Shown in pieces: positions 19,101-46,554 of a stretch of DNA of 64,000 nucleotides (positions are counted from its first letter, which is position 1; each line of letters begins with the position of its first letter). Origin of the DNA: Bacteroidales bacterium (lineage in GTDB: Bacteria; Bacteroidota; Bacteroidia; Bacteroidales; WRLA01). The notes beneath the pieces were generated by a model. The model had not been told where the DNA came from and did no database searches. It was given only the letters and a program-made list of their open reading frames with translations. The translations under genes were made by a program, and so were the position numbers. The DNA is taken from contig OY781097.1 of NCBI GenBank assembly GCA_963676415.1, forward strand, positions 4,732,555-4,796,554, read 5' to 3'.

Positions 19101-19129
19101 GGGTCGAATGAAAATTCGACCCTTTTTTT
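19101..19129 (+). terminator. Rho-independent terminator of the aminotransferase gene
   Basis: GGGTCGAAT-GAAA-ATTCGACCC followed by T7. Confidence 0.8.
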
Positions 19130-19217
19130 ATCGTGCATGCAATCCGCATTCTTTCAATTCGGGGTTTTCCCACCACCATCTTCCGGCGCGGACATCCTCT
19201 CCGGGTTCAATGGCACG
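19126..19217 (-). repeat. Orphan duplicate of the last ~90 nt of cysH (left copy of a 92-bp direct repeat)
   Basis: 89 of 92 positions are identical to 20159-20250, which holds the real cysH 3' end and stop. Confidence 0.9.
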
Positions 19218-19249
19218 AAAATTATCATTCGCTCATTTTTGAATCCATA

Positions 19250-19552
19250 TCATGTCACTGACAATCCAAGATTTTTACCCAGTCCTTCCTCGAAAATCTT
19301 AAACAAGGTAGATATTTGAATATCAATCTTCCCGTTTTCCAATCTTGAAATATAGCTTTTCTTTGTCCCCGTTTTATGCGCAAGATCCTCCTGAGTCATT
19401 CTGGCTTCTCTTCTTGCTTCCCGCACCATTTCACCAATAATAAATGATTTAGCCCGTGCTTCAAAAGCATCTCTTTTTTCTGTGCCTACAGCACCATATT
19501 TTATATTCAGTAGCTCATCAAATGTTTTTGCCTCTCTAATACTTTTCATCAT
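19250..19552 (-). CDS. XRE-family HTH antitoxin (HigA-like)
   Basis: EARMTQEDLAHKTGTKKSYISRLENGK helix-turn-helix. It overlaps the 3' end of the upstream toxin-like ORF, a toxin-first arrangement. Confidence 0.8.
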   Translation of the reverse strand: MMKSIREAKTFDELLNIKYGAVGTEKRDAFEARAKSFIIGEMVREARREARMTQEDLAHKTGTKKSYISRLENGKIDIQISTLFKIFEEGLGKNLGLSVT

Positions 19553-20066
19553 TCAACCCTTTCTTTTTAAAATATTCTTCCTTCAATCTTAAGGCATTAA
19601 TAATCTCACGTTTAGGAGTTTTTCTGCTCTTTTTTTGAAACCCTTGAAACAGAATCACAAGTTTTCCTTCATCAAAGCAACTAAAAATCCGATAACTATT
19701 ATTCCCTTTGCTAATCCGAATTTCATACAATCCTTGTGTTCCTTCAATGTGTTTTAAAAACCTTTGCGAAATCCTATCCACTGTTCTTACAATCTTAACC
19801 TGCTTTATTCATGAAATTTCGTCATGAGCGTTCAAACCGCAATAAGAGAAAGGAAGCGCAGGTTTTTGGCGCACAGGAATAGCCGTAGCTATTTTGAGCA
19901 CCAAAAAGATAGCATTCCTTTCTATTGCAGCGGTTTGGTCGCGTAATAGAATATTTTGTGAATAATGCAGGTTAAAGACATACTCAATTTTTTCCTGAGT
20001 CTGCTCATCAAGAGTAAGATAAAAGTCAATAAAATAATTCTCATAAAAACAGATCTCCCTAAGCAT
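19536..20066 (-). pseudogene. RelE/ParE-superfamily (phage Gp49-like) toxin gene interrupted by a MITE
   Basis: The N-terminal part MLREICFYENYFIDFYLTLDEQTQEKIEYVF (20066 downward) and the C-terminal part KIVRTVDRISQRFLKHIEGTQGLYEIRISKGNNSYRIFSCFDEGKLVILFQGFQKKSRKTP are in the same frame. They are separated by a 173-bp element plus a 4-bp duplication (177 nt), and the element contains a TGA. Confidence 0.75.
19799..19971. mobile_element. 173-bp MITE with imperfect terminal inverted repeats and a TTAA target duplication
   Basis: The ends CCTGCTTTATTCATGAAATTTCG (19799 onward) and CCTGCATTATTCACAAAATATTC (reverse complement of the other end) match at 12 of the first 13 positions. It is flanked by TTAA at 19795-19798 and 19972-19975. 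A second copy lies at 63861-63996. Confidence 0.75.
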
Positions 20067-20102
20067 ACCACAAAGTTAACAAATTTGTTAACTATATCAA
20101 AG

Positions 20103-20136
20103 AAAAAAAACCTGCTCCAAATTTTGTTGAGCAGGT
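20103..20136 (-). terminator. Hairpin terminator just downstream of cysH, located inside the inserted cassette
   Basis: CCTGCTC...GAGCAGG stem flanked by an A-run and a T-run, so it could act in both directions. On the minus strand it follows the cysH stop by ~25 nt. Confidence 0.6.
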
Positions 20137-20158
20137 TTTCAGGAATATTTTGAAAATC

Positions 20159-20250
20159 TTTTATCGCGCATGCAATCCACATTCTTTCAATTCGGGGTTT
20201 TCCCACCACCACCTTCCGGCGCGGACATCCTCTCCGGGTTCAATGGCACG
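20159..20250 (-). repeat. Right copy of the 92-bp direct repeat (functional cysH 3' end)
   Basis: See 19126-19217. Confidence 0.9.
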
Positions 20251-20862
20251 GGTGCAGGGCTGGCAGCCAATGCTCGGAAAACCTTTGTCGTGCAAGCGGT
20301 GATAAGGCACATTATTTTCGTGTATGTAATCCCAAACATCTTCTTCTGACCAATCGATCAGCGGATTGAACTTTACAAGGCCGTTGTTTTCGTCCCATTC
20401 GATCATCTGTCCGTTGGTACGTGTAACCGACTGGCTGCGGCGCAAACCGGTAATCCAAACATCCAAAGAAGATAAGGCACGCTGCAAAGGCTCAATCTTG
20501 CGGATATGACAACAAAGTTTCCGGTTTTCCACGCTATCGTAAAAGAGGTTGATCCCTTTGGTGTTCACCATTTCTTCAATGCGCTTGTAATCCGGGAACA
20601 TCACCCGGATATTGATACCATAACGGCTGTTTGTTCGTTGAATCAGATCATAGGTCTCCGGGAAGACCCTCCCTGTATCGAGGGTAAAAATATCAGCATT
20701 TTTATCTGCAGTAAGCACCATATCGGTTAAAACCTGATCTTCGGCACCCATGCTCGATGACAATGCAATTTTTCCCTTAAAACGCTCATGCATTACCTTG
20801 ATGACCTTTTCAGGAGCTTGACCACGAAACTCTTTGTTCAGTTCTTCTGCTATCTCTTTCAT
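20161..20862 (-). CDS. cysH: Phosphoadenylyl/adenylyl-sulfate reductase (thioredoxin-dependent)
   Basis: PAPS-reductase fold with the C-terminal KECGLH motif, and a CC...CxxC-like cysteine set (LCCH, GCQPC) suggestive of the Fe-S APS-reductase type. Confidence 0.85.
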   Translation of the reverse strand: MKEIAEELNKEFRGQAPEKVIKVMHERFKGKIALSSSMGAEDQVLTDMVLTADKNADIFTLDTGRVFPETYDLIQRTNSRYGINIRVMFPDYKRIEEMVNTKGINLFYDSVENRKLCCHIRKIEPLQRALSSLDVWITGLRRSQSVTRTNGQMIEWDENNGLVKFNPLIDWSEEDVWDYIHENNVPYHRLHDKGFPSIGCQPCTRAIEPGEDVRAGRWWWENPELKECGLHAR

Positions 20863-20983
20863 CTATTTAATGTTCTTTTTTCAGATTTTACGCGGCAGCC
20901 TTCATCATTAAAAGACTGGCCTCCAACTATGTCCACGGCAGCGCATCAAACAAAACGCATAAACCTGCTCAAGGATTATTCGC

Positions 20984-21012
20984 CAAAAGTACAAAAAAGC
21001 TAATAATTCAAA
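20984..21012 (-). promoter_or_regulatory. Candidate Bacteroidetes sigma-A promoter for cysH
   Basis: On the minus strand, TTTG (21012-21009), a 17-nt spacer, then TACTTTTG (20991-20984), which matches the -7 consensus TAnnTTTG exactly. It lies ~120 nt upstream of the ATG. Confidence 0.35.
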
Positions 21013-21026
21013 TTTCGTAGAAACCC

Positions 21027-21626
21027 TTATTTTTTTACCTTTATGGTGCAGCCAATGGCTTTGGTAGTAGCCGGATCGGGCATTTCACCTTTTTCGATTG
21101 CGGCAATTGCGTTTTCGAGGAATTTTTCTTCTACTGCAGAAGCATCTTTATAATTATCATCAATGGCTCCGATATAGCGCACAATAAATTTTTTGCCTTC
21201 GTTCTGTATCAGGAAAATATGCGGTGTGCGTGTAGCTCCGTATTGCGGAAAAACTCTCTGGCCTTCGTCAAAAAGATAAGGAAAATCAAAGTCCTTTTCA
21301 TTAGCACGTTCCTGCATATTCTCAAAAGAATCTTCGGGCACTAATGCCGGGTCATTTGGATTGATGGCCACAACGGGATAGCCTTTGGGCGCATATTTAT
21401 CGTTCAGATCAATAATACGGTCTTCATAGGCAACCGCATACGGGCAATGGTTGCAGGTAAATATCAGGATGACGCCTTTTTCGCTGGTAAAATCATCAAG
21501 TGAAATCATTTTACCGTCGATATTTTTCAGTTTAAAACCGGGTGCTTCATCACCGGGAGAAAGTTGTGCCATGAGGGGAATGTTAAAAAAAACAGCCAGG
21601 ATAAAATTTAAGAATGTTGTCGTCAT
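21027..21626 (-). CDS. Thioredoxin-fold (AhpC/TSA/redoxin-like) secreted protein
   Basis: Signal peptide and a CNHCP CxxC motif. Confidence 0.7.
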   Translation of the reverse strand: MTTTFLNFILAVFFNIPLMAQLSPGDEAPGFKLKNIDGKMISLDDFTSEKGVILIFTCNHCPYAVAYEDRIIDLNDKYAPKGYPVVAINPNDPALVPEDSFENMQERANEKDFDFPYLFDEGQRVFPQYGATRTPHIFLIQNEGKKFIVRYIGAIDDNYKDASAVEEKFLENAIAAIEKGEMPDPATTKAIGCTIKVKK

Positions 21627-21636
21627 TGTTTTGAAT

Positions 21637-22140
21637 TTATGGTTTGATTAAATAATCCAGTTCGGTCATTAATTCCTCAAAATTAAAGCCCTGCTCATAA
21701 AACCGTCGCTGTTCAGCATTATAGATCAATGTGGCCGGAATGGCTCCGCTCCAGTTTTTGTTCACCTGATCAATCCAGATGTGTGCTTTTGGATCATCGA
21801 GCAAAACCACATGGCCATTGATTGGATTTTCTTTAAGGAATGGTTTTACGCGCTTCTCAATATGATGCGCAAAATCAAGGCTCACAAATAAAAACTGAAC
21901 AGGCTGGCCTTCCAAAAGTTCTGCTGCCTGATTGAATGCCGGCAATTCTTCCACACAAGGCTTGCACCATGTCGCCCAGAAATTCACGACATAAACTGTA
22001 TCGTTTTGTTGGTGCAGGAATGGTTTTAAGCCATCAAAATCAAGCACAGAAATTTTTTCCTGAGCAAAACTTTTGGCAGAAAAAATCATTAAAACGAAAA
22101 AAAATATAAGGCTGAGCTTCTTCATTTGATTGTTTTTCAA
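21637..22140 (-). CDS. TlpA-family thiol:disulfide oxidoreductase
   Basis: Signal peptide and the FWATWCKPC active-site motif. Confidence 0.8.
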   Translation of the reverse strand: MKNNQMKKLSLIFFFVLMIFSAKSFAQEKISVLDFDGLKPFLHQQNDTVYVVNFWATWCKPCVEELPAFNQAAELLEGQPVQFLFVSLDFAHHIEKRVKPFLKENPINGHVVLLDDPKAHIWIDQVNKNWSGAIPATLIYNAEQRRFYEQGFNFEELMTELDYLIKP

Positions 22141-22229
22141 TGAAGTAAACAGTCTAATCGGCTTTTTGTTGCCACCGGATTGTTAAGAAATACATAAAGC
22201 TTATGAAAAGTCAATAATGGAACCTCCAT

Positions 22230-23411
22230 CTATTTCTTTTCCCAGGCCGATTTCATTTGCCATGCACCATCCTTATCAGAGATTTGCGCTTCCCATTCCA
22301 TTTTCTTCATCCAGGCTTTTCCGGGAACCGGCGAATAACCTTCTTTGGGTTCGATTTCCAGATAGATGTTCCCGTCAATTTTTTCCAGTTCATATTCTCC
22401 TGCGATGATCCCACCGATTTCATCAACACCTAAAGTAAACCGACCCTCGACTCCAAGATCACCGGCAAGGCAGTTCAATTGTGGGATTGGCGGTGAAAAA
22501 CGGATACGCAGTTCATGGCCATCCTGCCGCCCGATCAATGATGTTATTTCATAAAAACCCTGATTTTCAATAATTTTTAACTCAAAACCCTGATCCGCTA
22601 TACCCCCTATATTAACCGGTATTTCTGCTAAAACGCCTTTAAAATTTTTGTTCCAGCTCAAAGAAACCATATCCATGCTGTACTTGGTTTGCAAGCCTTT
22701 AATTCCGTTGACCTTAACCGGAAGTTTGATCAATTCGGCCGGCTGGCCGTTAATGTCCACAGAAACTTTTTCCTCATCAGCAGCCACGAATCGAAAATGC
22801 TTCATAAAAACCAAAGTCATAAATTCCGGTTCTTTTGCTTCGCCTCCAATGGGTGCTAAGAGGGATGCCGGTTCCATTTGCGGGTTTTGCTCATCAACAT
22901 CCATAAGGATTTTATTTCCAAAACGATCTGTTAAGGATAAATGAATTTTCAGGCAGCCGTTCTTTTCTTCAAAACCATATTCAAAATCAGATGCCGTTAG
23001 CTCCACATCATTGAGTACCGGCGCATACATTTCATGGGTAAGTGCGAGATGCGGGCTGAAATAAATATCTGCTTTGCTTTCACCATCATAATACAAAATG
23101 ACCATGGCTCCCTCATTTCCATCCTTTTCAATAATCTGCAATTCAATAGAACGATAATTGGCCAAAGGCTTAAATTCCACCAGCATCAGGCGCTCAATAA
23201 CCCCGGCATCCCAGTTATTGGTATTCAAACGAAACGGGTTCAAAAGGACATCGCTTTTAGCCGCTCCATAAATACGAATATCATTTTGGCGGTTTCCCAG
23301 ATATTCATTTTCATCAACAACCGAATCCTTAAGCTGGATACAGGCCGCAAAACCCAAGAGAACCAAGAGCACAACAAACTGAACAACAATGAAGTGAAGC
23401 CTGTTTTTCAT
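22230..23411 (-). CDS. Hypothetical lipoprotein
   Basis: The N-terminus ends in LLGFAAC, a lipobox-like cysteine. No recognised domain. Confidence 0.55.
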   Translation of the reverse strand: MKNRLHFIVVQFVVLLVLLGFAACIQLKDSVVDENEYLGNRQNDIRIYGAAKSDVLLNPFRLNTNNWDAGVIERLMLVEFKPLANYRSIELQIIEKDGNEGAMVILYYDGESKADIYFSPHLALTHEMYAPVLNDVELTASDFEYGFEEKNGCLKIHLSLTDRFGNKILMDVDEQNPQMEPASLLAPIGGEAKEPEFMTLVFMKHFRFVAADEEKVSVDINGQPAELIKLPVKVNGIKGLQTKYSMDMVSLSWNKNFKGVLAEIPVNIGGIADQGFELKIIENQGFYEITSLIGRQDGHELRIRFSPPIPQLNCLAGDLGVEGRFTLGVDEIGGIIAGEYELEKIDGNIYLEIEPKEGYSPVPGKAWMKKMEWEAQISDKDGAWQMKSAWEKK

Positions 23412-23518
23412 AATTTACTTTGATTTGCTTTGAGCATCAAATATAGGAATTCAGAAGAAAACAGCATAAAAAAAGGGAATACCAAAGCATTCCCTTTTTT
23501 CAATATTTTAAACCAATT

Positions 23519-25672
23519 TTATTTCAGATTATCATTCATATGATCCGTAATTTTTTGGATCAGATGAGCACGGTCTTTGCCGCGCACGTTATGTTCGTGT
23601 CCGGGATAAATGAAATAATCCAGCTGTATTCCTTTTTCGATACACGCCTGTATGAAACTGAGGCTGTTTTGCCACACCACAACCGGGTCGGTAGTACAGT
23701 GCATCACCAGAAGATCGGTTTTCAGTTCACCGGCTTTATCGCTTAGACGAGCCTGATCATATCCTTCCGGATTTTCTTCAGGCGTATCCATATAGCGTTC
23801 ACCATACATAATTTCATAGTATTTCCAATCGATTACCGGGCCGCCACAACTGGCTGCTTTAAACACATCCGGATGGTTCAGCACCATGCTGATTGTCATA
23901 AAACCACCATAGCTCCAGCCATCTATTCCCATACGGTCGGCATCAATAAAATCAAGGCTTTTGAGGTACTCTACACCTACCATCTGATCCTTCATTTCCT
24001 GCTGGCCCAGATTACGGTGAATCATGCTTTCAAATTCAAAGCCACGGTTTGCTGTTCCGTGATTATCCAGTGTAAACACTACATAACCTTGCTGTGCCAT
24101 ATAATTTAAGAAGATGCCTGCTCCGCCCAGCCAGGTATCATTAACCAGCTGCGAATGAGGCCCACCATAAACATAAAGGAAAACCGGATACTTTTTGCCT
24201 TCTTCAAAATCAGCAGGTTTAATCAAACGGTAATACAAATCATCGCCATTATCGGCTTTGAGTGTTGCTATTTCCATTTCGCCCAGTTTATAATCCTCAA
24301 GCGGATTGGGTGCAGTAAGGATGTTCTGAACGATTTTTCCTTTGTTGCTCAGCACATTAATTATGCGTGGAACATCTGTACTGCTATATGAATCAATCAA
24401 ATATTTCCCAGAGTATGCCACCTGTGCCGAATGCGTACCATGTGCTTGTGTCAGTTTCTCAAGGCTTCCTTTTTTGATATTGAGCTTATAAATCTGTTGC
24501 TGAATCGGGCTGTCTTTTGTAGTGGCAATGAATAAATTCTCGCCTTTGGCATCCTGGCCGGCAATTTCCGTAACCACCCATTCACCTGTTGTCAGCTGCT
24601 TTTTCAGTTCACCTTCCTGGTTGTAAAGGTAAAGATGATTGTAGCCATTGCGCTCGCTGAACCACACAAAATCTTTTGCTTTATTGTTCAGGAAATAGGG
24701 TCCGTGCTCGGGTTCCACCCATGTTTCGGCTTTTTCCTCGAAAAGGGTATTTACCAATGCACCGCTTACCGCATCATAACGGTTTAGCTTCAGATGATCC
24801 TGACCACGGTTCAAAACCGCAATATAGATATATTTTCCATCGGGCGACCATGTAATATTGGTCAGATACTGTTCTTTGGGTTCTCCGGTTTTTAAGTAAA
24901 CCGTTTTTGCAGTGGCCACATCGTACACGCCTAAAGTCACCTGATGGCTTTTCATGCCCGCCATGGGATAGCGAATAGGTTTTTCTTCGGCAATACGGGT
25001 TGTAATATCTACCAGCGGATATTCAGCTACCATGCTTTCGTCCATACGGTAAAAAGCCAGTTTCTGTCCATTGGGCGACCAGAAGGTTCCTTTTGTAATA
25101 CCAAATTCATTACGGTGCACATCGCTGTGGCCATAAACAACGCCTTTGTTATCATCATTGCTTACGGCAAATTCTTCCCCGTCTTTTGATATAAAAAGGT
25201 TGTTTTCGCGCGTAAAAGCCGCAATATATGATTTCGGTGAAACATCAACATTTTCTACATCCTCAGGCCATGAGTTCAACTTTTCCATCTGATTGTTCTC
25301 CAGGTCATAAAGCATCACACTGTTGTTGGCTGTCAGGCGTGCATGTTTGATATCGTTCCAGCGGACACCGGCAATATAGCGCAGGGAATCCAGGCCGGCT
25401 TTGTTCAGCGCGCTGTTTACATCGTCCAAAGTAAAAAGCGTATCGCGGCTCTCTCTTTTAGCTGTACCTTTTATAATTGCGCTGTAATTGGAAGCCAGGT
25501 AAGTAAAATTATCCGATTCGGCCTGCCATTGCAGATTAGGCAAACGCTCAGGATAGAGCGAATAGTTCAGAAATGCGGCATCCGCTGCCGTAAAAACTTT
25601 GTCCTGCGCCATACCTGCGATACTCAGGAATGATAGCAGGAGCGCAAATGATAGTGCACGTAAAATATTCAT
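23519..25672 (-). CDS. S9-family serine peptidase, dipeptidyl-peptidase IV-like
   Basis: 717 aa with a signal peptide, a long beta-propeller-type N-terminal region, the GWSYGG nucleophile motif, and a C-terminal D/H region (HCTTDPVV, YPGHEH). Confidence 0.85.
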   Translation of the reverse strand: MNILRALSFALLLSFLSIAGMAQDKVFTAADAAFLNYSLYPERLPNLQWQAESDNFTYLASNYSAIIKGTAKRESRDTLFTLDDVNSALNKAGLDSLRYIAGVRWNDIKHARLTANNSVMLYDLENNQMEKLNSWPEDVENVDVSPKSYIAAFTRENNLFISKDGEEFAVSNDDNKGVVYGHSDVHRNEFGITKGTFWSPNGQKLAFYRMDESMVAEYPLVDITTRIAEEKPIRYPMAGMKSHQVTLGVYDVATAKTVYLKTGEPKEQYLTNITWSPDGKYIYIAVLNRGQDHLKLNRYDAVSGALVNTLFEEKAETWVEPEHGPYFLNNKAKDFVWFSERNGYNHLYLYNQEGELKKQLTTGEWVVTEIAGQDAKGENLFIATTKDSPIQQQIYKLNIKKGSLEKLTQAHGTHSAQVAYSGKYLIDSYSSTDVPRIINVLSNKGKIVQNILTAPNPLEDYKLGEMEIATLKADNGDDLYYRLIKPADFEEGKKYPVFLYVYGGPHSQLVNDTWLGGAGIFLNYMAQQGYVVFTLDNHGTANRGFEFESMIHRNLGQQEMKDQMVGVEYLKSLDFIDADRMGIDGWSYGGFMTISMVLNHPDVFKAASCGGPVIDWKYYEIMYGERYMDTPEENPEGYDQARLSDKAGELKTDLLVMHCTTDPVVVWQNSLSFIQACIEKGIQLDYFIYPGHEHNVRGKDRAHLIQKITDHMNDNLK

Positions 25673-25689
25673 ATTAAATTATTTGGGGT

Positions 25690-26664: not shown

Positions 26665-26890
26665 GTTGCGAAATTATAAAATATGAGTTATAAAATCCGG
26701 AAAATCTTTTTGAAATGGGTCTGCATTAACAATCCATGATCTTTGGCAAGGACAAATTTATGGATGACAATCCAATTTCCAAAGCCAAGTGATTTGCATT
26801 GCAGCGGGAGTCACAAGGATTCAACGAATGCGAACATTTTTTGGAGAGTGAAAGTTTTGCGTTACTTTCGTAAGCTCAAATGTGCAGTTT

Positions 26891-27685: not shown

Positions 27686-27830
27686 TGATCGCCATTATAA
27701 GCGAAAATCCGGTTTATTATAACATCGGACAGTTCGTAAGTATTGGAACTCTGGCAGCTCAAATAAACCAAGCTTTGGAAAGCTGCGCGGGTTTAAGCTG
27801 AATAACTTGATATTCAATAATCAAAAAAAA

Positions 27831-37509: not shown

Positions 37510-37949
37510 GCCTGTAGTTTTTGGTTCAACAATTAGGTTTCGCATGCTAAAAAAGCCCTTATACACTGCATAAGAGCTTTTTTAGTGAGATTGTTCAAAT
37601 ATAGGAAAGATTCTCTGTTCCGACAAATAAGAGCCAAAGTTTTTCATTAAATCTTCATAAACAATTTTAGAGGTCAGTAGACAAATACATAGTTTATGAA
37701 CACCCGTTTATGAATAAATTTTCCTCTACCGAAGCTTCGGTATCTTCGAAATGACTTTTTAATCAGTTGTTTAGGCAAAGGCAGCGCATTTCGGCTTAAT
37801 CCAAATAATTCGCTTAATATGAGATTATTGCAAATTGCAATCATTTATAACAACAGGTCATCTTGATATACGCTTACCTACTTACCCCTAAACATTTTCC
37901 TACACCAAAAAAATCACGAAGAAAAAGGGGCTTCGCTTATCCACAAACA

Positions 37950-37976
37950 AAAAAACTCCCATTGAAAAACGGGAGT
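37950..37976 (-). terminator. Terminator downstream of rpmE2
   Basis: CTCCC...GGGAG stem with a T-run on the minus strand, ~25 nt after the stop. Confidence 0.55.
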
Positions 37977-38001
37977 CAGAAAAATATTTTTGACTAAAAA
38001 T

Positions 38002-38268
38002 CTATTGATTCTTTTTGTCGAAATGCTTTTTGTAGCGGTTCTTGAACTTATCAACACGTCCGGCGCTATCCACAAGTTTGATTTTACCAGTATAAAACGG
38101 GTGAGATGTATGGGAAATCTCCAGCTTTACCAAAGGATATTCGTTACCATCCTCCCACTCGATTGTTTCTTTTGTGTTTACGGTTGAACGTGTTACAAAG
38201 CTATAACCGTTCGACATATCTTTAAAAACAACTTTTCTGTACTCCTTCGGATGTATGTCCTTTTTCAT
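38002..38268 (-). CDS. rpmE2: 50S ribosomal protein L31, type B
   Basis: [10 protein letters not shown]...SHPFYTG without the CxxC zinc motif, which marks type B. Confidence 0.9.
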
Positions 38269-38375
38269 TATAATATTGTCTTAAAAAATTTAGGACTGCA
38301 AAAGTACTTAATTTCCTTGAATGCGCAAACCTAATCTTATTTTTTTTGAAAATTCTTTTTAACCTTTAGTCCTTA

Positions 38376-39470: not shown

Positions 39471-39535
39471 TCAAAGCAGACGAAAAAATAAATTGCAAAT
39501 TTAGTACGTTTCATAAAACAAACGGGATAACAGCA

Positions 39536-40531: not shown

Positions 40532-40537
40532 AACTAA

Positions 40538-41275
40538 ATGTACCGCATTACTGCCGTTTCCTACCTCAACACTTACCCACTCATTTACGGACTGAAAAAT
40601 TTCCTGCCCGATGAAAATGGATTGCATTTTGAAACTGCCGTACCTTCGGAAGTGGCGCGCAGACTCAAAAATCAGGAAACGCAAATCGGACTGATTCCCG
40701 TGGCCGCATTTCCCGGAATCCCACAGGGCAACATCATCAGCAAGTATTGTATTGGGGCTGAAGGAGCCGTAAGAACCGTAATGCTCTATTCGAAAAAGCC
40801 GCTGAATGAGATCAAAAGCATTGCACTCGACAGCGATTCGCGCACATCGGTAATGCTTGCTCGCGTTTTGGCCAAACATTACTGGAAAATCAGTCCCGAA
40901 TGGGAAAAAATGAAGTCAAACAGTTTAAATCAGGCAGAGGCAATGGTTTTGATCGGCGATAAGACTTTCGGTGCATTTCCCGAACACCATTTTGTTTATG
41001 ACCTGGCCGAAAGCTGGAAGGAATTTACCGGCCTGCCTTTCGTTTTCGCCGTATGGGCAGCCAATTGTCCCATTCCCGGAGATTTTAAGGATCAGTTTGA
41101 CATGGCGCAGTCAGAAGGACTGAAACGAATTGCCGAAAGCATCCTCCGCCTTCCGGAAAATGTGAGCATGGCCCGGGCGGTGGATTATTTGCAATGCTCC
41201 ATCAGTTTTGATCTGGATGATGCAAAAAAAGAAGCAATGGCTTTGTTCTTAAACTATTGCGATTCCTTATCCTGA
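40538..41275 (+). CDS. mqnA: Chorismate dehydratase (futalosine pathway step 1)
   Basis: YRITAVSYLNTYPLIYGL N-terminus and ~245 aa periplasmic-binding-protein-like fold typical of MqnA. Confidence 0.6.
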   Translation: MYRITAVSYLNTYPLIYGLKNFLPDENGLHFETAVPSEVARRLKNQETQIGLIPVAAFPGIPQGNIISKYCIGAEGAVRTVMLYSKKPLNEIKSIALDSDSRTSVMLARVLAKHYWKISPEWEKMKSNSLNQAEAMVLIGDKTFGAFPEHHFVYDLAESWKEFTGLPFVFAVWAANCPIPGDFKDQFDMAQSEGLKRIAESILRLPENVSMARAVDYLQCSISFDLDDAKKEAMALFLNYCDSLS

Positions 41276-41949
41276 TTTTCTTTTTTGATTTGCATGGTGT
41301 AGATGTACTTGGCAATCATTAAAGCAATAACGATGGCCACATAAAACTGCCCGAAAATCCCAAAAAGGATAGACAACATCCGTGAAGCCGAAAGCTGTGG
41401 CAAAATATCCCCATAACCGATTGTAATCAGCGTGGTAAAGCTGTAATAAGTCAAATCGACCAAAACATTTTCACCGCTACCGCTGATATTAAATGCGTGG
41501 GGGTAGAGAATAAAGATCAAGTGGTTCAGTATCGCAAAAATAAAGCCCAACAATAAATATCCTGAGGCCACTCCGGCGATGGCATCTTCATCCACTTCCG
41601 GAATGCGAAAAAGCTGCTTCATCAGGTTAACAAAAACCCCAATTAAGAAAAGAGCACTAAAAGCTGTCCCTGCGATATCAAGCTTTGAATCAGCATACTG
41701 CACCTGAACCCAATGCAGCAGAAGAGCGCCAATGGCCAGAAATACAATCCCCTGCAATAATGCACGGAACTGCCGGATAAAATTCACACAAGCCAAAAGA
41801 AATAAAGTAAACACAAAAGCCCTTAAACTTTTCAATGCTAAGGTATTCTGATATAAAACTACCGGCAAGACTATTTGCAGAATCAAGGTAATCAGCAGCA
41901 GCCAGAAACGCTGTTTGAGAAGGCTTTTTAGATAGTGGATCTTTTTCAT
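41254..41949 (-). CDS. Small potassium-channel family protein
   Basis: Selectivity filter TTLITIGYGD preceded by several TM helices. Start placed at MKKIHYLK; the longer ORF would run into the recF promoter region. Confidence 0.75.
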   Translation of the reverse strand: MKKIHYLKSLLKQRFWLLLITLILQIVLPVVLYQNTLALKSLRAFVFTLFLLACVNFIRQFRALLQGIVFLAIGALLLHWVQVQYADSKLDIAGTAFSALFLIGVFVNLMKQLFRIPEVDEDAIAGVASGYLLLGFIFAILNHLIFILYPHAFNISGSGENVLVDLTYYSFTTLITIGYGDILPQLSASRMLSILFGIFGQFYVAIVIALMIAKYIYTMQIKKENQDKESQ

Positions 41950-42013
41950 AGTTTTCAAAAATAAGAAATTCATCAAAACCAAGGGAAAATGTATTTTTGC
42001 ACAAAGCTTTGCC

Positions 42014-43123
42014 ATGCACTTAAAAAAACTCAAACTGGCCCAATTTAAAAACTGCTTGGAAGCAGATCTGGAATTATCAGAAAAAATCAATTGCTTTGTG
42101 GGATACAATGGCGCAGGCAAAACCAATATCCTCGATGCCATTTATTACCTTTCTTTTTGCAAAAGCTATTTCAATCCTTCCGACAGCCAGAACATCAAGC
42201 ATGGGGAAGATTTTTTTGCCATTCATGGCTATTACGAAAACAGCGCGGGCGAGGAAGACCTGGTGCAGTGCATACAGAAAAAAGGCCAGCCCAAGCAGTT
42301 CCGCAAAAACAAAAAAGACTACCAGCGCCTGGCCGATCATATCGGGCTTATCCCTTTGGTAATGATCAGCCCTTACGACCGCGACCTCATCAACGATGGC
42401 TCGGAGCTGCGCCGGAAATATATGGACAGCGTTATCGCACAATTTGATAAAGATTATCTGGACAATCTTATCCGCTATAATAAAAGTGTACAGCAAAGAA
42501 ATATCTTACTGAAACATTTTGCCACACAGCAGCAATTCGACCAAAACCTGCTTGAGCCCTGGGATCAGCAACTGATTGTGCTGGGAGAAAAAATCCATGA
42601 AGTGCGCAAGAAATTTATTGAAGAATTCGCGCCGGTTTTTCAGGATTATTACCGCTTTATTTCCGGGCAACAGGAGGAAGTAAGCATAGAATACAGTTCA
42701 CAGCTTTTGCAGCACAGCACCGAAGAACTGCTGCGCAAAAACCTGGAGCGCGACCGCATATTGAAATTTACCGGAAGCGGCGTACACCGCGACGACCTGA
42801 ATTTCAGGATTTCGGGATATCCTCTCAAAAAATTCGGCTCCCAGGGCCAGCAAAAATCCTTTGTTATTGCCATTAAGCTGGCACAATACAAGCACACCCG
42901 GATCATCAAAAATTTCAAACCGATTATTTTACTGGATGATATTTTTGACAAACTGGACGACAAACGGGTGGACCAGATTATTGAAATGGTGAGCAATGAC
43001 GGTTTTGGCCAGATTTTCATCAGCGACACACAGCGCGAACGCGTAGAACGGATTTTCCAACACCACAAAGTAGCGCACAGGATATTTTCGGTGGATGGAG
43101 GAATAATTCAGAATGAAAAATAG
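42014..43123 (+). CDS. recF: DNA replication and repair protein RecF
   Basis: Walker A GYNGAGKTNILDAIY, SMC-like signature GSQGQQKS, and Walker B ILLDDIFDKLD. Confidence 0.9.
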   Translation: MHLKKLKLAQFKNCLEADLELSEKINCFVGYNGAGKTNILDAIYYLSFCKSYFNPSDSQNIKHGEDFFAIHGYYENSAGEEDLVQCIQKKGQPKQFRKNKKDYQRLADHIGLIPLVMISPYDRDLINDGSELRRKYMDSVIAQFDKDYLDNLIRYNKSVQQRNILLKHFATQQQFDQNLLEPWDQQLIVLGEKIHEVRKKFIEEFAPVFQDYYRFISGQQEEVSIEYSSQLLQHSTEELLRKNLERDRILKFTGSGVHRDDLNFRISGYPLKKFGSQGQQKSFVIAIKLAQYKHTRIIKNFKPIILLDDIFDKLDDKRVDQIIEMVSNDGFGQIFISDTQRERVERIFQHHKVAHRIFSVDGGIIQNEK

Positions 43124-43194
43124 AATTAGGCCTCCACATACCAAACAAAGATGCCGGAGCGTTGTTATTTCTCAAACAAGAAACGCGTAAAAAA

Positions 43195-43425
43195 ATGCTC
43201 AAATTACTCCTTCTGACTACAGTTCTTCTCGGAATTGCCTTTGCCGGCATTGCCATTAAGATGTTTGTGTTTAAAAACGGTGTTTTTACCAAGTCATGCA
43301 GCTCTCACGACGACAGTGCAGGGAAACATGGCGGTTGTGTGTGCGGCGGCACGGATAAATCGAAATGCAAAAACAAGAACAAGCATAAAGAGTTCAACAT
43401 TAAGGTGGAGCCCTATCGCGGATAA
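43195..43425 (+). CDS. Small membrane protein with a Cys-rich tail
   Basis: One N-terminal TM helix (LLLLTTVLLGIAFAGIAI), then CSSHDD...GGCVCGG...KC. The ATG at 43195 is preferred to the TTG at 43162. Confidence 0.45.
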   Translation: MLKLLLLTTVLLGIAFAGIAIKMFVFKNGVFTKSCSSHDDSAGKHGGCVCGGTDKSKCKNKNKHKEFNIKVEPYRG

Positions 43426-43553
43426 ACCTTGCCTAAGAAGTATCTGCTGTTTTTAAGCTGTTTTCTCATTTAGAAAAACCTTTGTATTGGCGTTGCAATG
43501 CCGTTGCAACACCGTTTCAACAGCATTGCAAGGCCAATGCAGATTATATAAAC

Positions 43554-43592
43554 GAAAGATTTACACCCATTCTTCCTTTAGCAATTCTCCCT
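43554..43592. repeat. Left copy of a 39-bp direct repeat (orphan copy of the 3' end, including the stop, of the 4Fe-4S gene)
   Basis: 37 of 39 positions are identical to 44119-44157. The reverse complement encodes GELLKEEWV-stop. Confidence 0.85.
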
Positions 43593-44118
43593 CCTGTTTT
43601 CCAGATAAGACACCAGTTTTTAACTTTAGGCATCTGTAAACTCTAAAAATATTGAATATAAAGCATGTCTTCGACCACTGTTTTTATTCCTTTTGTCTTG
43701 GCACAAAAGGAACCAAAAAGCCAAGTCAAAACAATGCTTCCCCCCGCTCTTCCCGATACCAAGAATTTCCAATCAAAGTAGTGCCTCGTGCCTCGGCAAA
43801 GCTGTTGCCCTTTGATGGAAATTCTAAGCATCGGGAATTCACCCTCATCCGGCCCGCTGTTTTGACAGGCCGCCCCACTGTCTAAACGAGGATGATTCTT
43901 GTTTTAAAAACAATTGGATTAAAATTTTCGTCTAACGTAAAATCAATAGACGTATGCGCATAACAGGAGAATAATCCTGATTGCACAAATATCTTTATTG
44001 CCAACAAATAGCTATTAAAATGAAATCAAGACGCCCAAACTCAAAGCATTAGCCTCATTAAAATATTGATATTAAGATAATTAACTTTTTGACTATTTAT
44101 TATCCAAAAAACAGAAAA
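43593..44118. mobile_element. Element E1: 526-bp non-coding insert (conserved core plus AT-rich arm)
   Basis: Homologous along its whole length to 45897-46397: the core is nearly identical and the arm roughly two-thirds identical by eye. It is bracketed by the 39-bp direct repeat. Confidence 0.7.
43665..43905 (-). ncRNA. Candidate structured RNA (conserved core of E1); strand tentative
   Basis: ~241 nt are nearly identical to 45969-46209, with a 1-nt indel that breaks any common reading frame. There is a 26-27-nt imperfect hairpin (43752-43778 with 43810-43835) and a 9-bp hairpin (TCCTTTTGT/ACAAAAGGA). Two plus-strand A.C/C.A mismatches become G.U on the minus strand. Confidence 0.35.
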
Positions 44119-44157
44119 GAAAGATTTACACCCATTCTTCCTTCAGCAATTCCCCCT
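44119..44157. repeat. Right copy of the 39-bp direct repeat (functional 3' end of the 4Fe-4S gene)
   Basis: See 43554-43592. Confidence 0.85.
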
Positions 44158-45028
44158 GCAAGCCAACAATAATGGATTTCACCGGCACTTTTCGGTTGGC
44201 ATTGGCCTGTGCAGCTTTCACGATATGGAGCAAACCGCTGCAACAAGGCACCTGCATCATCATCACTGTGATGGTATTCACTTTTGCGTCATCAATCATC
44301 ATGCGCACTTTTTCGATATAAGAATCTATGCCCTGATCCAGCTTGGGGCAAAGCACGGCCAGACTTTTGCCTTTAAGGTAATCCTGATGGAAATTTCCCA
44401 TAGAAAACGCAACACAATCGGCTGCAAGCAAAAGGTCGGAGTTTTGAAAATAGCTGGCATTGGGCTGCACGAGATGCATTTGCACCGGCCACTGCTTTAG
44501 TTGGCTAGGCTGCGTTCCCAAGGCAGCAGCCGGCACATCCGGATCAATATTTCCAAAGTCCATACTTTTTGAGCCCGGACATCCCCCTCCTTGGTGATGA
44601 TGCATTTGAGCGACTTGCTGAACGGCTTGTGGTTTTTTGCCACTGTTATGCACCTCACGGATGACTTCTTTTACATCAAAATCAATTTTTCCTTCATTTT
44701 CGAGCAAATAATTTACGGCCTCTTTGAGATAAACCGTTTCATTATGATCTTTCAGGTGCTTCATATGTGCCAAGACCGTATTGCGGCCTTTTTGGATCAT
44801 CAAGGCAATTACCTCTGTTTCGCTATAGGGCTGTGCTTCACGCTTTTCAATACTGATGGCGTCCTGCGGACAATGTCCCAGGCAGGCACCCAACCCATCG
44901 CACATCAAATCACTAACTAAGCGCGCTTTTCCATCAATGATCTGCAAAGCACCTTCATGGCATCCGGGCACACAAAGTCCGCAACCATTACATTTTTCTT
45001 CGTCGATATGAACAATTTCTCTTTCCAT
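44126..45028 (-). CDS. 4Fe-4S dicluster (ferredoxin-type) domain protein
   Basis: The N-terminal CNGCGLCVPGC ... CDGLGACLGHCP gives two CxxCxxCxxxCP-type clusters. The C-terminal domain has additional cysteines (VPCCSG). Confidence 0.75.
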   Translation of the reverse strand: MEREIVHIDEEKCNGCGLCVPGCHEGALQIIDGKARLVSDLMCDGLGACLGHCPQDAISIEKREAQPYSETEVIALMIQKGRNTVLAHMKHLKDHNETVYLKEAVNYLLENEGKIDFDVKEVIREVHNSGKKPQAVQQVAQMHHHQGGGCPGSKSMDFGNIDPDVPAAALGTQPSQLKQWPVQMHLVQPNASYFQNSDLLLAADCVAFSMGNFHQDYLKGKSLAVLCPKLDQGIDSYIEKVRMMIDDAKVNTITVMMMQVPCCSGLLHIVKAAQANANRKVPVKSIIVGLQGELLKEEWV

Positions 45029-45083
45029 GGCGTATCATTTTTTTAATTTTGAGACAAATATATTGTGCCCCAGAATTAAAAAC

Positions 45084-45099
45084 TGTAACCTAAGTTACA
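45084..45099. promoter_or_regulatory. Candidate Crp/Fnr-family operator, TGTAAC-N4-GTTACA
   Basis: Perfect 6-4-6 palindrome in the 106-bp divergent region between the 4Fe-4S gene and the Crp/Fnr gene. A second palindrome, GGTAT-TTTG-ATACC, lies at 45104-45117. Confidence 0.45.
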
Positions 45100-45134
45100 A
45101 TTTGGTATTTTGATACCGAAATTAACAAAATATT

Positions 45135-45812
45135 ATGACAACTGCCGCATATCTCAGCCAATGCATTCTTTTTAAGGGATTAAAGGAGCATGAAATCGAA
45201 CTCCTTTTAAATCAAATCCATTATCAGGAAAAGAGTTTTAAAAGGGAATCTCTCATCGCACAAAGCGGAGATGAAACCACCGCCCAACTGATTCTTTTGA
45301 GCGGCAGTGTACGCGGTGAAATGATGGACTTCAATGGAAAAGCCATTAAAATTGAAGATATAAAAGCCGTACGTATGCTTGCTCCTGCATTTTTGTTTGG
45401 GAAGCAGAATCATTATCCGGTTTCCATTATTGCCAACGAAGAAAGCCGGGTTCTCCACATCCCCAAAAATGATTTCCTGAAATTGCTTGGCTCCAACGAG
45501 CTGATTTTAAGGAATTACTTAGATAATATTTCCAGCCGGGCCCAATTTTTATCTGAAAAAATTAAATTCCTGTTTTTCCAGGACATCAAGGGGAAACTGG
45601 CACATTATTACATGACAAAACTCAGGGAAAGCAGTTCTCAAACCATTAGAATGGAAAGTTCGCAGGAACAATTGGCGGTACTTTTTGGCGTTAGCCGTCC
45701 GGCATTGGCGCGGAGTATCAAAGAGTTGCGCGAAGATAAAATCATTGAAACACATGGAAAAGAAATCCGGATCCTGAATGTTCAGGCCTTAAAAGCCTTG
45801 GTCAGGGAATAG
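45135..45812 (+). CDS. Crp/Fnr-family transcriptional regulator
   Basis: N-terminal cNMP-binding-like beta-roll and a C-terminal HTH (SQEQLAVLFGVSRPALARSIKELRED). Confidence 0.85.
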   Translation: MTTAAYLSQCILFKGLKEHEIELLLNQIHYQEKSFKRESLIAQSGDETTAQLILLSGSVRGEMMDFNGKAIKIEDIKAVRMLAPAFLFGKQNHYPVSIIANEESRVLHIPKNDFLKLLGSNELILRNYLDNISSRAQFLSEKIKFLFFQDIKGKLAHYYMTKLRESSSQTIRMESSQEQLAVLFGVSRPALARSIKELREDKIIETHGKEIRILNVQALKALVRE

Positions 45813-45896
45813 TCCTAACCGCCAATTTTATAAGTCAATACAATACCCGAACCTCCACCGGGCATAATTGCCGGGGCAAAACTGAATTTCCTCTTT
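45740..45896. repeat. Left copy of a 157-bp direct repeat (functional Crp/Fnr 3' end plus an orphan PAP2 3' end)
   Basis: 154 of 157 positions are identical to 46398-46554. Confidence 0.9.
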
Positions 45897-46397
45897 CCAA
45901 ATTTCCTTATAAGACAGCCATTTGTAAAATAGAGTGTTAGTATTTCATATGGATACTGGATATCAATTATGCCTTCGACCGCTGTTTTATTCCTTTTGTC
46001 TTGGCACAAAAGGAAGCAAAAAGCCAAGTCAAAACAAAGCTTCCCCCCCGCTCTTCCCGATGCCAAGAATTTCCAATCAAAGTAGTGCCTCGTGCCTCGG
46101 CAAAGCTTTAGCCCTTTGATGGAAATTCTAAGCATCGGGAATTCACCCTCATCCGGCCCGCTGTTTTGACAGGCCGCCCCGCGGTCTAAACGAGGATGAT
46201 TTTTGTTTTGCAAACATTTTGACAAGATAAAAAATAATAGAAGTGATCTGATTTAAAACCCTTCATTATTAATACGTATGGCTGACAATTATCACTTAAG
46301 ATGAAATCAAAAACCATATTCTTACAGTTTAGAGCTATAAAATATTAATAATGAACAACTAATTTTATAATTGTATCAAATACAGAAAACACAAAAG
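45897..46397. mobile_element. Element E2: 501-bp non-coding insert, sibling of E1
   Basis: Same architecture and orientation as E1, bracketed by the 157-bp direct repeat. Confidence 0.7.
45969..46209 (-). ncRNA. Candidate structured RNA (conserved core of E2); strand tentative
   Basis: See 43665-43905. In this copy the A.C position of the long hairpin is a G-C pair. Confidence 0.35.
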
Positions 46398-46554
46398 AAT
46401 CATCGAAACACATGGAAAAGAAATCCGGGTCCTGAATGTTCAGGCCTTAAAAGCCTTGATCAGGGAATAGTCCTAACCGCCAATTTTATAAGTCAATACA
46501 ATACCCGAACCTCCACCGGGCATAATTGCCGGGGCAAAACTGAATTTCCTCTTT
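46398..46554. repeat. Right copy of the 157-bp direct repeat (orphan Crp/Fnr 3' end plus the functional PAP2 3' end)
   Basis: See 45740-45896. Confidence 0.9.

Follow-up and report, generated by a model that had tools for sequence, protein, structure and literature searches.

Two described systems provide precedents for the structures analysed here. Insertion with long target duplication has been described for restriction-modification gene complexes (Nobusato et al., 2000, Gene 259:99; Furuta et al., 2010, PMC2853133), in which the flanking repeats measure 46-423 bp and often lie over gene 3' ends, and the insert carries no mobility gene (PMC2853133). Furuta et al. (2010) also observed that such insertions are associated with species that are naturally competent, and proposed that double-strand breaks are involved (PMC2853133). 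The elements IS1549 and IS1634 are flanked by direct repeats of 8-514 bp, a duplication for which the literature offers no mechanistic model (PMC2266710). A preliminary description of the DNA studied here had stated that no described bacterial mechanism produces its pattern of repeat-flanked inserts; in view of these precedents, that statement is incorrect, the pattern being rare, yet already described.

The window (the whole 64,000-nt stretch that was analysed) contains three inserts, designated E1, E2, and E3, each flanked by a direct repeat. These repeats, and a shorter one found elsewhere in the window, are as follows.

19126-19217, unstranded: E1 repeat copy 1, which duplicates the final 90 nt of cysH, along with 2 nt, as a non-functional remnant
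20159-20250, minus strand: E1 repeat copy 2, the functional cysH 3' end (cysH at 20161-20862)
43553-43592, unstranded: E2 repeat copy 1, a remnant of the 3' end of a 4Fe-4S protein gene, with 2 mismatches
44118-44157, minus strand: E2 repeat copy 2, in which the 4Fe-4S protein gene (44126-45028) has its functional 3' end
45740-45896, unstranded: E3 repeat copy 1, which holds the functional 3' end of a Crp-family gene (to 45812) and a PAP2 3'-end remnant
46398-46554, unstranded: E3 repeat copy 2, which holds a Crp 3'-end remnant and the functional 3' end of the PAP2 gene (46473-47324)
56390-56458, unstranded: a REP-like hairpin of 37 nt (56406-56442) with a flanking exact 16-nt direct repeat (56390-56405 and 56443-56458)

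All three repeat pairs reported in the preliminary description were recovered, with lengths of 92, 40, and 157 nt and 3, 2, and 3 mismatches for E1, E2, and E3, respectively; the E2 pair, given there as 39 nt, extends by one base, and the 16-bp duplication around the REP-like unit was confirmed as exact. The last 90 nt of cysH and the last 32 nt of the 4Fe-4S protein gene lie inside their repeats, and the E3 repeat spans the 3' ends of both convergent genes, which encode a Crp-family regulator and a PAP2 phosphatase. The genes at all three repeats are equal in length to their orthologues, consistent with the earlier view that gene 3' ends were duplicated and that insertion left the host genes intact. 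The repeat pairs cannot be explained by chance, since by our own estimate the expected number of such pairs in 64 kb (39-mers no more than 12 kb apart and with at most 2 mismatches) was approximately 1e-11.

Sequence comparison with related genomes proves the polarity of these structures: E1, E2, and E3 are insertions with a duplicated target, because the single copy at the empty site of relatives aligns to both repeats of the corresponding insert. The E3 site is empty in the relatives L006 and L007, which each carry a single copy of the 157 nt (at 9133-9289 in both) and in which the PAP2 and Crp genes are only 2 nt apart. L006 is also empty at the E2 site, with a single copy of the 40 nt at 10872-10914, and E2 repeat copy 2 is identical to the empty-site sequence. 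In L007, an independent assembly, the E2 site is occupied by E2 with its repeats. Single copies of the E1 repeat mark the empty sites of L011 (1770-1860) and L009 (2586-2674), and L015, also an independent assembly, carries E1 at the same site as the window. Both E3 repeat copies carry SNPs that are common with L007 and absent from L006, so the copies were made from local sequence; each copy also has its own private change.

Two additional cases were found in L006, where repeats of approximately 365-400 bp surround a nucleotidyltransferase gene and repeats of approximately 280 bp surround an MNT/HEPN toxin-antitoxin pair; at both positions, the window represents the empty site. No inverted repeats were found at these L006 cassettes. 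The earlier proposal that long target stretches of variable length were duplicated by insertion is correct, and the pattern recurs in the window and its relatives.

The E1 insert is a toxin-antitoxin cassette with an interrupted toxin gene.

19218-20158, minus strand: E1 insert, 941 bp, a higBA toxin-antitoxin cassette (Pfam Gp49 and HTH_3) with its own bidirectional terminator (20102-20139)
19250-19552, minus strand: higA antitoxin gene, 100 aa, intact, with a Pfam match to HTH_3
19536-20066, minus strand: higB toxin gene of the Gp49 family, interrupted by a MITE, which introduces a stop codon, and thus present as 19972-20066 and 19536-19798
19799-19971, unstranded: palindromic MITE of 173 bp within higB, with a TTAA target duplication

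The inverted repeats of this MITE resemble IS1380 ends found in relatives, and the MITE is, judging by its sequence, IS1380-type or IS1380-derived. A second MITE-type duplication in the window, of approximately 9 bp, was observed at 37669-37890. In L015, higB is uninterrupted and encodes a 117-aa HigB, and protein P0241 is 99% identical to the HigA of the window. E1 repeat copy 1, the remnant, matches the L015 cysH end with 100% identity and thereby has the L015 allele at all three sites that separate the two window copies. There were no inverted repeats at the E1 ends, and related higBA cassettes in three other genomes had no flanking repeats. The A-rich tract beside the E1 duplication, previously likened to retroposon architecture, is the A/U tract of the bidirectional intrinsic terminator and not a junction tail.

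The three cargos had been regarded as unrelated, but E2 and E3 are of the same family and share a core of approximately 240 nt with 97% identity, E1 being the higBA cassette. From their alignment, E2 and E3 are evidently copies of one non-coding, non-autonomous element of approximately 0.5 kb.

43593-44117, minus strand: E2, a 525-bp non-coding element with the ends CCTGTTTTCCAGATAAG ... ATCCAAAAAACAG, its site empty in L006 and occupied in L007
43682-43918, minus strand: structured core conserved in E2, which putatively encodes a non-coding RNA in minus-strand sense
45897-46397, minus strand: E3, a 501-bp copy of the E2 element family identified by alignment to E2, its site empty in L006 and L007
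45985-46222, minus strand: structured core conserved in E3, with 97% identity to that of E2

The core (about 240-250 nt, 97% conserved, and highly structured) had no match in Rfam. Its RNA sense is the minus strand, as judged by fold energy (-101.7 vs. -72.2 kcal/mol) and by 86 G-U cells vs. 3 A-C cells, and both elements carry a putative conserved structured RNA gene of approximately 250 nt on the minus strand of the window. The family is bounded by imperfect inverted repeats (CCTG…CAG, 5'-CCTGTTTTCCRGATAAG ... ATAATCCAAAAAACAG-3') that are weak in any one copy (p 0.04-0.19); the end motifs are kept in all copies, whereas the adjoining internal sequence is only approximately 60% identical. 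The plus-strand right end is A-rich with a slightly variable junction, and the right junction of E3 contains 12 nt of filler without explanation.

Five further copies of the element were present in a sister genome, two of them with flanking repeats of approximately 140 and 222 bp. The approximately 140-bp repeat (L002) extends across convergent genes for a SpoU methylase and ComEC. The copy with the 222-bp repeat (L003) is located between co-directional genes, and this repeat includes a dispersed 157-nt repeat, rendering the case less certain. No flanking repeat was detectable at the copies L001 and L005, and no 5'-truncated copies were seen. The family was found at six sites or more, each with an unrelated repeat, and the same element has duplications of different length by site (E2, 40 bp; E3, 157 bp; L002, approximately 140 bp; L003, 222 bp).

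No transposase, integrase, or reverse transcriptase was found in the inserts or in the whole window, in line with the earlier remark on reverse transcriptase. In approximately 110 kb of sequence from relatives, the transposases comprised only one IS1380 and one IS110 fragment, and the IS1380 showed classical 4-bp duplications and ends unlike those of E2 and E3.

Our analysis favours target breakage with gap filling as the most likely origin of the duplications. The two target strands would be broken at positions separated by tens to hundreds of bp, the element ends would be joined to these breaks, gap filling would then duplicate the interval between them, and the responsible enzyme would act in trans from outside the window. 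The boundaries of E2 and E3 fall at the same conserved motifs in independent insertions, which indicates end recognition. IS1549/IS1634 behave likewise, and such a route has been proposed for the restriction-modification insertions. In a dense genome, presumably only those insertions survive whose duplication takes in one or both 3' ends of the neighbouring genes, with both genes intact, and the signature of 3' ends and convergent junctions may be explained by such survivorship.

At a given site, the insert together with its repeats was later passed between related lineages. A comparison of E2 and both its repeats in L007 and the window shows 2 substitutions and a single 23-nt indel over 605 nt, compared with 4.4% divergence in the flanks, and the tract of identity (43485 to 44193) ends 36-68 nt from the repeat edges. 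E1 differs between the window and L015 by approximately 3%, compared with approximately 10% in the flanks. This far lower divergence implies later lateral spread of E1 and E2 by homologous recombination, which may have proceeded by import via the flanks or by excision of a circle through the repeats and Campbell re-integration. For this explanation as a whole (three genuine insertions with long target duplication, arising by breakage and gap filling, filtered by survivorship, and subsequently spread), we consider the case evenly balanced. Against it stand the failure to find a matching transposase in the window or in approximately 110 kb of relatives, the weak inverted repeats, the copies L001 and L005 and the higBA cassettes of three genomes without repeats, the filler at E3, and the less certain case of L003. 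E1 and the L006 cassettes, moreover, have no inverted repeats, and one mechanism may therefore not fit all cargos.

Host break repair appears unlikely. In this reading, which follows the general route suggested for restriction-modification genes, staggered chromosome breaks would be joined to any small linear DNA (acquired, e.g., via competence), with subsequent filling of the overhangs and no part for an element-encoded transposase. It would accommodate E1 and the toxin-antitoxin cassettes of L006, which share the signature although they have no inverted repeats, as well as the filler at some junctions; the lineage has a comEC gene, and competent species and double-strand breaks figure in the account of Furuta et al. 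(PMC2853133). The conserved end motifs bounding independent insertions of E2 and E3 argue against it, and neither competence nor end-joining genes are directly evidenced.

We consider it similarly improbable that circles composed of an insert and one local copy integrated by single crossover, as had been suggested to account for both the repeats and their 2-5% divergence. The near-identity of E2 and its repeats in L007 and the window, the edges of that tract, the low divergence of E1, and the L015 alleles in the remnant cysH copy all fit such events, and direct repeats of 40-157 nt can release an insert as a circle. However, a circle gains target sequence only after an earlier insertion there, which excludes it as the origin; furthermore, no two of the at least six sites of the E2/E3 family have related repeats, and both E3 repeat copies carry local-lineage SNPs, with one private change per copy. 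A length of 40 nt is also near the lower limit for RecA-dependent crossover. Campbell integration therefore fails as the origin and is consistent with the later spread of E1 and E2.

Target-primed reverse transcription, with E2 and E3 as SINE-like RNA copied into staggered nicks, is very unlikely, although the variable duplication length, the structured RNA core, and the A-rich plus-strand right end with its slightly variable junction would suit it. Neither the window nor the fetched loci of relatives contain a reverse transcriptase, and the A-rich end lies on the 5' side of the RNA because the RNA sense is the minus strand. Inverted-repeat motifs at both ends, the want of 5'-truncated copies, and the terminator origin of the E1 tract likewise speak against the retroposon architecture proposed before. 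Even less credence attaches to an unknown recombinase that uses gene 3' ends or terminators as sites, the repeats being element-borne att sites. In four of the five clear cases, the insert sits where two genes converge, and E1 and E2 each occupy the same site in different lineages, but the repeats share no sequence, vary from 40 to 222 bp, and have no common boundary motif, and no recombinase gene was found. There is no need to invoke the recombinase suggested earlier for convergent gene ends, given the lack of a target motif at the junctions, the co-directional genes at L003, and a positional bias explained by selection for intact genes. An assembly artefact merging reads with and without the insert, set beforehand as a possible refutation, has a negligible probability, as no support for it was found, the repeat copies diverge by 2-5%, older copies have decayed repeats (L002, 77-87% identity), and the same structures in the independent assemblies L007 (E2) and L015 (E1) refute it.

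The inserts share features with several known systems. SINE/LINE-type retroposons have variable target duplications and a structured RNA core in common with E2 and E3, which differ in having no reverse transcriptase, an A-rich end on the wrong strand, and inverted repeats at both ends. NBU1 and NBU2 of Bacteroides are integrative elements at gene or tRNA 3' ends, which they restore. Here, too, the repeats include a gene 3' end, the host gene is intact, and the site is re-used across strains; in contrast, there is no integrase, the repeats differ by site and vary in length, and the repeat would be made from the recipient's own sequence. Bacterial MITEs, such as the 173-bp MITE in the same window, are likewise short, non-coding, multi-copy elements with terminal inverted repeats that are mobilised in trans, but they have fixed short duplications (TTAA for the 173-bp MITE and approximately 9 bp at 37669-37890) rather than the 40-222 bp of E2/E3, and the latter have a long conserved structured core. 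IS1549 and IS1634 (IS1634 family, related to IS4) resemble E2/E3 in that repeat length varies widely by site within one family. IS4-type ends often begin with CTG, as do the E2/E3 termini; E2/E3 differ in having no transposase gene, and no IS1634-family gene was present in the available sequence. The restriction-modification insertions share a small insert without a mobility gene, long direct repeats of variable length, a repeat that is single-copy in the empty relative and often over a gene 3' end, and addiction-type cargo, E1 and the L006 cassettes being toxin-antitoxin pairs. They differ in that the present inserts carry a toxin-antitoxin pair and a non-coding RNA element in place of restriction-modification genes, that these inserts belong to an uncultured Bacteroidales lineage, and that E2/E3 form a multi-copy family with conserved ends, a feature unreported for restriction-modification insertions.

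A direct-repeat search recovered, at the positions claimed in the preliminary description, the three long repeat pairs bracketing the small inserts E1 (19218-20158), E2 (43593-44117), and E3 (45897-46397), the E2 repeat being 40 nt long where 39 nt had been reported. These were the longest local direct repeats in the window once the PKD-repeat gene at 32-10972 was set aside (a single 3646-aa ORF with ~40 PKD-like repeats at periods of ~246-261 nt, which dominates repeat searches). The only comparable repeats in the window were the core shared by E2 and E3 and one REP-like family, and we estimated the chance expectation for such 39-mers at ~1e-11. The repeats cover gene ends, identified by Pfam and sequence, as listed below.

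Direct repeats flanking the three inserts and the gene ends that they cover
19126-19217 and 20159-20250: E1 repeat pair, 92 nt, 3 mismatches
20161-20862, minus strand: cysH, last 90 nt covered by the E1 repeat
43553-43592 and 44118-44157: E2 repeat pair, 40 nt, 2 mismatches
44126-45028, minus strand: 4Fe-4S protein gene, last 32 nt covered by the E2 repeat
45740-45896 and 46398-46554: E3 repeat pair, 157 nt, 3 mismatches
45135-45812, plus strand: Crp-family regulator gene, one end of a convergent pair covered by the E3 repeat
46473-47324, minus strand: PAP2 phosphatase gene, the other end of that convergent pair covered by the E3 repeat

The host genes at the inserts had been described as intact, and their lengths were indeed unchanged in all cases (225, 283, 300, and 233 aa).

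We compared these loci with related genomes to find empty sites, in which the repeated stretch is single copy and the insert is absent. Two close relatives, L006 (ERZ21878204, contig ctg9566l) and L007 (OZ245940.1, a Bacteroidales MAG), were reached via homologues of the 4Fe-4S protein; locus L015 comes from the same genome as L006. In both L006 and L007, only 2 nt separate the PAP2 gene from the Crp gene, and one 157-nt stretch aligns to both E3 repeat copies; therefore, E3 is absent from both. The 40-nt stretch is single copy in L006, which is thus empty for E2, and E2 with the same two repeats is present in L007. E1 occupies the same site in L015, with 89-nt repeats. One copy in L011, a relative at 70-75% identity in which cysH-aminotransferase synteny is preserved, aligns to both E1 repeats of the window, and one copy in L009 aligns to both E1 repeats of L015, providing a second empty site.

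These loci were then set against the features by which Furuta et al. (2010) recognized insertions with long target duplication. Empty sites whose flanks align on both sides were found for E3 (L006 and L007), E2 (L006), and E1 (L011 and L009). The repeats exceed 30 bp (40, 92, and 157 bp) and are single copy in the empty genome, and the inserts, at 0.5-0.94 kb, fall well within the 20-kb limit and carry no mobility gene, HigB and HigA being the only proteins found by Pfam. The cargo is higBA or a non-coding RNA element and not a restriction-modification gene pair, which served in that study as a search criterion and not as a mechanistic requirement. The comparisons demonstrated that E1, E2, and E3 are real insertions that duplicated local target sequence. 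An assembly artefact of a mixed population, which the preliminary description had named as a refuting case, is excluded because the structures recur in independent assemblies and the two copies of each repeat have diverged from one another.

The substitutions in the repeats bear on the source of the duplicated DNA. Both E3 repeat copies carry the substitutions that L007 and the window have in common against L006; a private change of its own is found in each copy. The functional copy of the E2 repeat, which forms the real gene 3' end, is identical to the empty-site sequence, and the non-functional remnant copy has two changes. These patterns indicate that the duplicated DNA is local, as for a target duplication, and not derived from a distant donor.

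Divergence within the inserts points, unexpectedly, to a later phase of movement. Over the 605 nt of E2 and both its repeats, the window and L007 differ by 2 substitutions and one 23-nt indel, against an expectation of about 27 differences and a flank divergence of 4.4%; the tract of near-identity (43485-44193) ends 36-68 nt past the repeats. E1 is ~3% diverged between the window and L015 and its flanks ~10%, and the remnant cysH copy of the window carries the L015 cysH allele at the three sites where the window copies differ. Because the inserts are less diverged than their flanks, insert and repeats have moved between lineages, into the same site, after divergence, and the inserts are younger than the genomes carrying them. 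The route could have been ordinary homologous import, or excision of a circle through the repeats and Campbell re-integration. Campbell integration, one of the explanations first offered for all three loci, accordingly survives in part: it fits the later same-site spread and low divergence of E1 and E2, but it cannot account for the arrival of an insert at a new site.

E1 is a higBA cassette, comprising a Gp49-family HigB toxin gene (PF05973, 5e-16) and an HTH_3 HigA antitoxin gene (PF01381, 3.7e-13). The toxin gene precedes and overlaps the antitoxin gene, as in type II higBA toxin-antitoxin systems, and L015 has an intact pair with an uninterrupted 117-aa higB gene. In the window, higA is intact and higB is interrupted and inactivated by a palindromic MITE of 173 bp (19799-19971) that has the TIR CCTGCTTTATTCATGAAA and duplicated TTAA on insertion; a second copy of this MITE is located at 63856-63996, upstream of an AraC-family gene at the window end. 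The MITE ends resemble those of an IS1380 element of OZ245940.1 that makes 4-bp duplications, and this IS1380 of the relatives does explain the MITE in higB. The A-rich tract at the E1 end, previously read as a retroposon sign, is the bidirectional terminator of the cassette (20102-20139). We found no terminal inverted repeats in E1 or in the L006 cassette, and related higBA cassettes from three other genomes lacked flanking repeats. A 3.7 kb block encoding a tyrosine decarboxylase and an amino-acid permease (L015 8429-12102) lies exactly at the outer edge of the cysH repeat in L015 and is also found in L009; neither L011 nor the window (where it would fall between 19125 and 19126) has it. It has no flanking repeats, and its position indicates that the same convergent junction took a second indel.

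E2 and E3, initially regarded as unrelated cargos, align from end to end, with a 240-nt core that is 97% identical and arms that are ~60% identical. A search with a core 20-mer identified four further copies in OZ245940.1 (L001, L002, L003, and L005) and a chance match (L004); the L007 copy is orthologous to E2. All seven copies share the core 21-mer CAAAAAGCCAAGTCAAAACAA without a change. A metagenome scan with this 21-mer gave chance matches only, BLAST of E2 against plasmids and phages gave no match, and among the collections searched the element has been seen only in this lineage. The element ends (left, CCTGTTTTCCRGATAAGACA; right, ATAATCCAAAAAACAG) are kept in all copies despite unconserved adjoining sequence and appear to constitute an imperfect inverted repeat of ~16 bp starting with CTG. 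The inverted repeat matched at 13/17 positions in E2, and the motif was also found in L002, L003, and L001, with weak per-copy p values (0.04-0.19); a cognate insertion sequence would be expected to have ends like CCTGTTTTCCRGATAAG / CTGTTTTTTGGATWAT. A 23-nt core insertion, TGGTTCTTGAGCCTGYCGAAAGR, is common to L002 (3125-3420) and the E2 orthologue of L007 (11095-11395) and absent from E2 of the window (compared at 43856), a pattern suggestive of gene conversion among the copies or of an indel that arose more than once. A near-perfect palindrome (GTTGCAATGCCGTTGCAAC...; 43488-43536) immediately upstream of the E2 site, which gave a spurious mir-33 match, is probably a terminator or operator.

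The core folds on the minus strand at -101.7 kcal/mol (z -6.9 vs shuffles) and on the plus strand at -72.2 kcal/mol (z -4.3). The consensus helices of the minus strand contain 86 G-U cells vs 3 A-C, a count biased by the structure-prediction method. Because of the energy gap and the agreeing G-U/A-C count, the core is read as a putative RNA of ~250 nt made from the minus strand. Covariation amounted to 1 compensatory pair in 79, the core holding too little variation for support. Rfam gave no match at gathering thresholds in the whole window and nothing meaningful for the inserts at E up to 1-10. No conserved ORF was found in E2/E3. A 38-aa ORF (MSSTTVFIPFVLAQKEPKSQVKTMLPPALPDTKNFQSK; window 43665-43781, plus strand, antisense to the RNA core) is present in 4/6 copies and stays open in E3 via two compensating frameshifts; it is probably non-coding because its start codon is missing in two copies, and a small toxic peptide was rejected on these same features of the ORF.

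The long-duplication signature was seen repeatedly in ~170 kb of related sequence, as listed below.

Further inserts between long direct repeats in related genomes
L002, copy of the E2/E3 element: repeat ~140 bp, 77-87% identical, across the junction where a SpoU methylase gene and comEC converge at their 3' ends
L003, copy of the E2/E3 element: repeat 222 bp, 97% identical, containing a dispersed 157-nt repeat
L006, nucleotidyltransferase gene insert: repeat ~365-400 bp, window is the empty site
L006, MNT/HEPN toxin-antitoxin pair: repeat ~280 bp, window is the empty site, region complicated by REP-like repeats

The L002 insertion is an old event, and the L003 case is less sure because its repeat holds the dispersed 157-nt repeat. 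The L001 and L005 copies showed no flanking repeats above noise. In the same sequences, the duplications at classical MITEs are short (TTAA; ~9 bp at 37669-37890). The latter insert, of 222 bp, has TAGRGGTMAGTAG-type inverted ends and is absent from L006, and a related copy is nested in the L003 element.

Other repeats were observed in these sequences. The previously noted 16-nt repeat (56390-56405 / 56443-56458) around a 37-nt GC-rich, REP-like hairpin was recovered and is exact; a similar sequence without the hairpin, at 61857-61878, resembles an unoccupied site, and related hairpins occur at 50864-50897 and 57115-57145. Repeats of 34 nt and 90 nt (94% and 88% identical; 50864-51154 and 56404-57144) bracket a ~5.3 kb island of 30-35% GC with T9SS-tail (Por_Secre_tail) and unknown genes, which may be a further long-duplication insertion or no more than a pair of copies of the REP-like family, also present in L006 and L007. 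A MITE-like repeat of ~345 nt (85-93% identical; window 58388-58734, L006 13011-13350, L015 649-998, L005 1493-1753) sits at different places across three related genomes. L007 contains a 2.05 kb tandem duplication (11944-16168, 97.7% identical) of a pair of T9SS-tail genes, within a 4.4 kb segment absent from the window, between a recF-like gene and an 87-aa ORF.

The E2/E3 family combines constant ends with variable duplications (40, 157, ~140, and 222 bp; none detectable in two copies). Such products most likely form when the two target strands break at points separated by tens to hundreds of bp, the ends of the element are joined to the breaks, and gap filling duplicates the interval. In a dense genome, both genes would survive only where the duplication spans the gene ends; a bias to convergent junctions would then need no targeting, because only such duplications spare both genes. 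More speculatively, each element end might insert into a different daughter duplex behind a replication fork, at positions slightly offset from one another.

Neither the inserts nor the window contain a transposase, integrase, or reverse transcriptase gene, and the only transposases in the loci of the relatives are of IS1380 and IS110. The relatives' IS1380 was rejected as mobilizer of E2/E3, since its ends (CCTAAATTATTCATAAAC / CCTGTTTAATTCATAAAC) have no more than CCTGTTT...ATAA in common with those of the element and it makes 4-bp duplications; an IS110 fragment beside the L005 copy was rejected because it lies in divergent orientation and IS110 makes no duplication. A recombinase acting at gene 3' ends, proposed earlier, is not borne out: the window has no recombinase gene, the insertions have no common att core and no shared target motif at the junctions, and the repeats are unrelated in sequence. 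The SINE-like retroposon reading does not agree with the minus-strand sense of the RNA, the full-length copies, or the lack of a reverse transcriptase, which the preliminary description had itself correctly noted for the window. A diversity-generating retroelement was rejected because the mismatches (E1, T/C, G/A, T/C; E3, T/C, A/G, G/A) are not adenine-directed and there is no reverse transcriptase in the window; an integron attC reading of the hairpins was rejected by eye, no R''/R' core consensus being seen, and the window has no tRNA or tmRNA as an integration target.

The view that no described bacterial mechanism gives this pattern needs correction, since it has been reported for restriction-modification genes (PMC2853133) and for IS1549 and IS1634 (PMC2266710). 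The phenomenon is already known but poorly understood; the earlier interpretation was partly right, the observation being real with two corrections. Work on restriction-modification genes (Nobusato et al., 2000; Furuta et al., 2010) defined "insertion with long target duplication", with repeats of 46-423 bp that are single copy in the empty genome and often lie over gene 3' ends; the inserts lack a mobility gene, and the mechanism was left unsettled (PMC2853133). These genes were hypothesized to have a life cycle in which they insert, are amplified via the repeats, and are released (PMC2853133). The direct repeats of IS1549 and IS1634 span 8-514 bp, and there is no model for these (PMC2266710).

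Long-target-duplication insertions have been known since 2000, but as scattered single events. In this lineage, the signature occurs with toxin-antitoxin cassettes and with a multi-copy element with recognizable ends, open to genome-wide survey. A dense genome can thus take insertions at nearly overlapping convergent genes and lose neither; the flanking repeats, once present, seem to allow transfer of the insert among related strains, which fits the "virus-like life cycle" hypothesized for restriction-modification genes. Of the new items, the most valuable is the RNA-bearing element, present in multiple copies and with target duplications that are long and variable; it makes the mechanism testable. 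That E2/E3 represents a new kind of non-autonomous, TIR-bounded element, with a conserved ~250-nt structured RNA and routinely duplicating 40-230 bp of target, is a tentative and rather unlikely reading. If true, insertion with long target duplication would gain its first multi-copy system that is tractable by experiment, and the element might reveal unrecognized transposase behaviour, e.g., strand transfer to a pair of sister duplexes behind the replication fork, and also a role of the RNA in its own mobility or maintenance.

Compared with IS1549 and IS1634, the E2/E3 family is alike in its variable repeats but lacks a transposase gene of its own, and neither the 64-kb window nor the loci of the relatives yielded a cognate insertion sequence. 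With the long-duplication insertions of restriction-modification genes, the inserts share all structural criteria, the difference being that the cargo here is a toxin-antitoxin pair and an RNA element.
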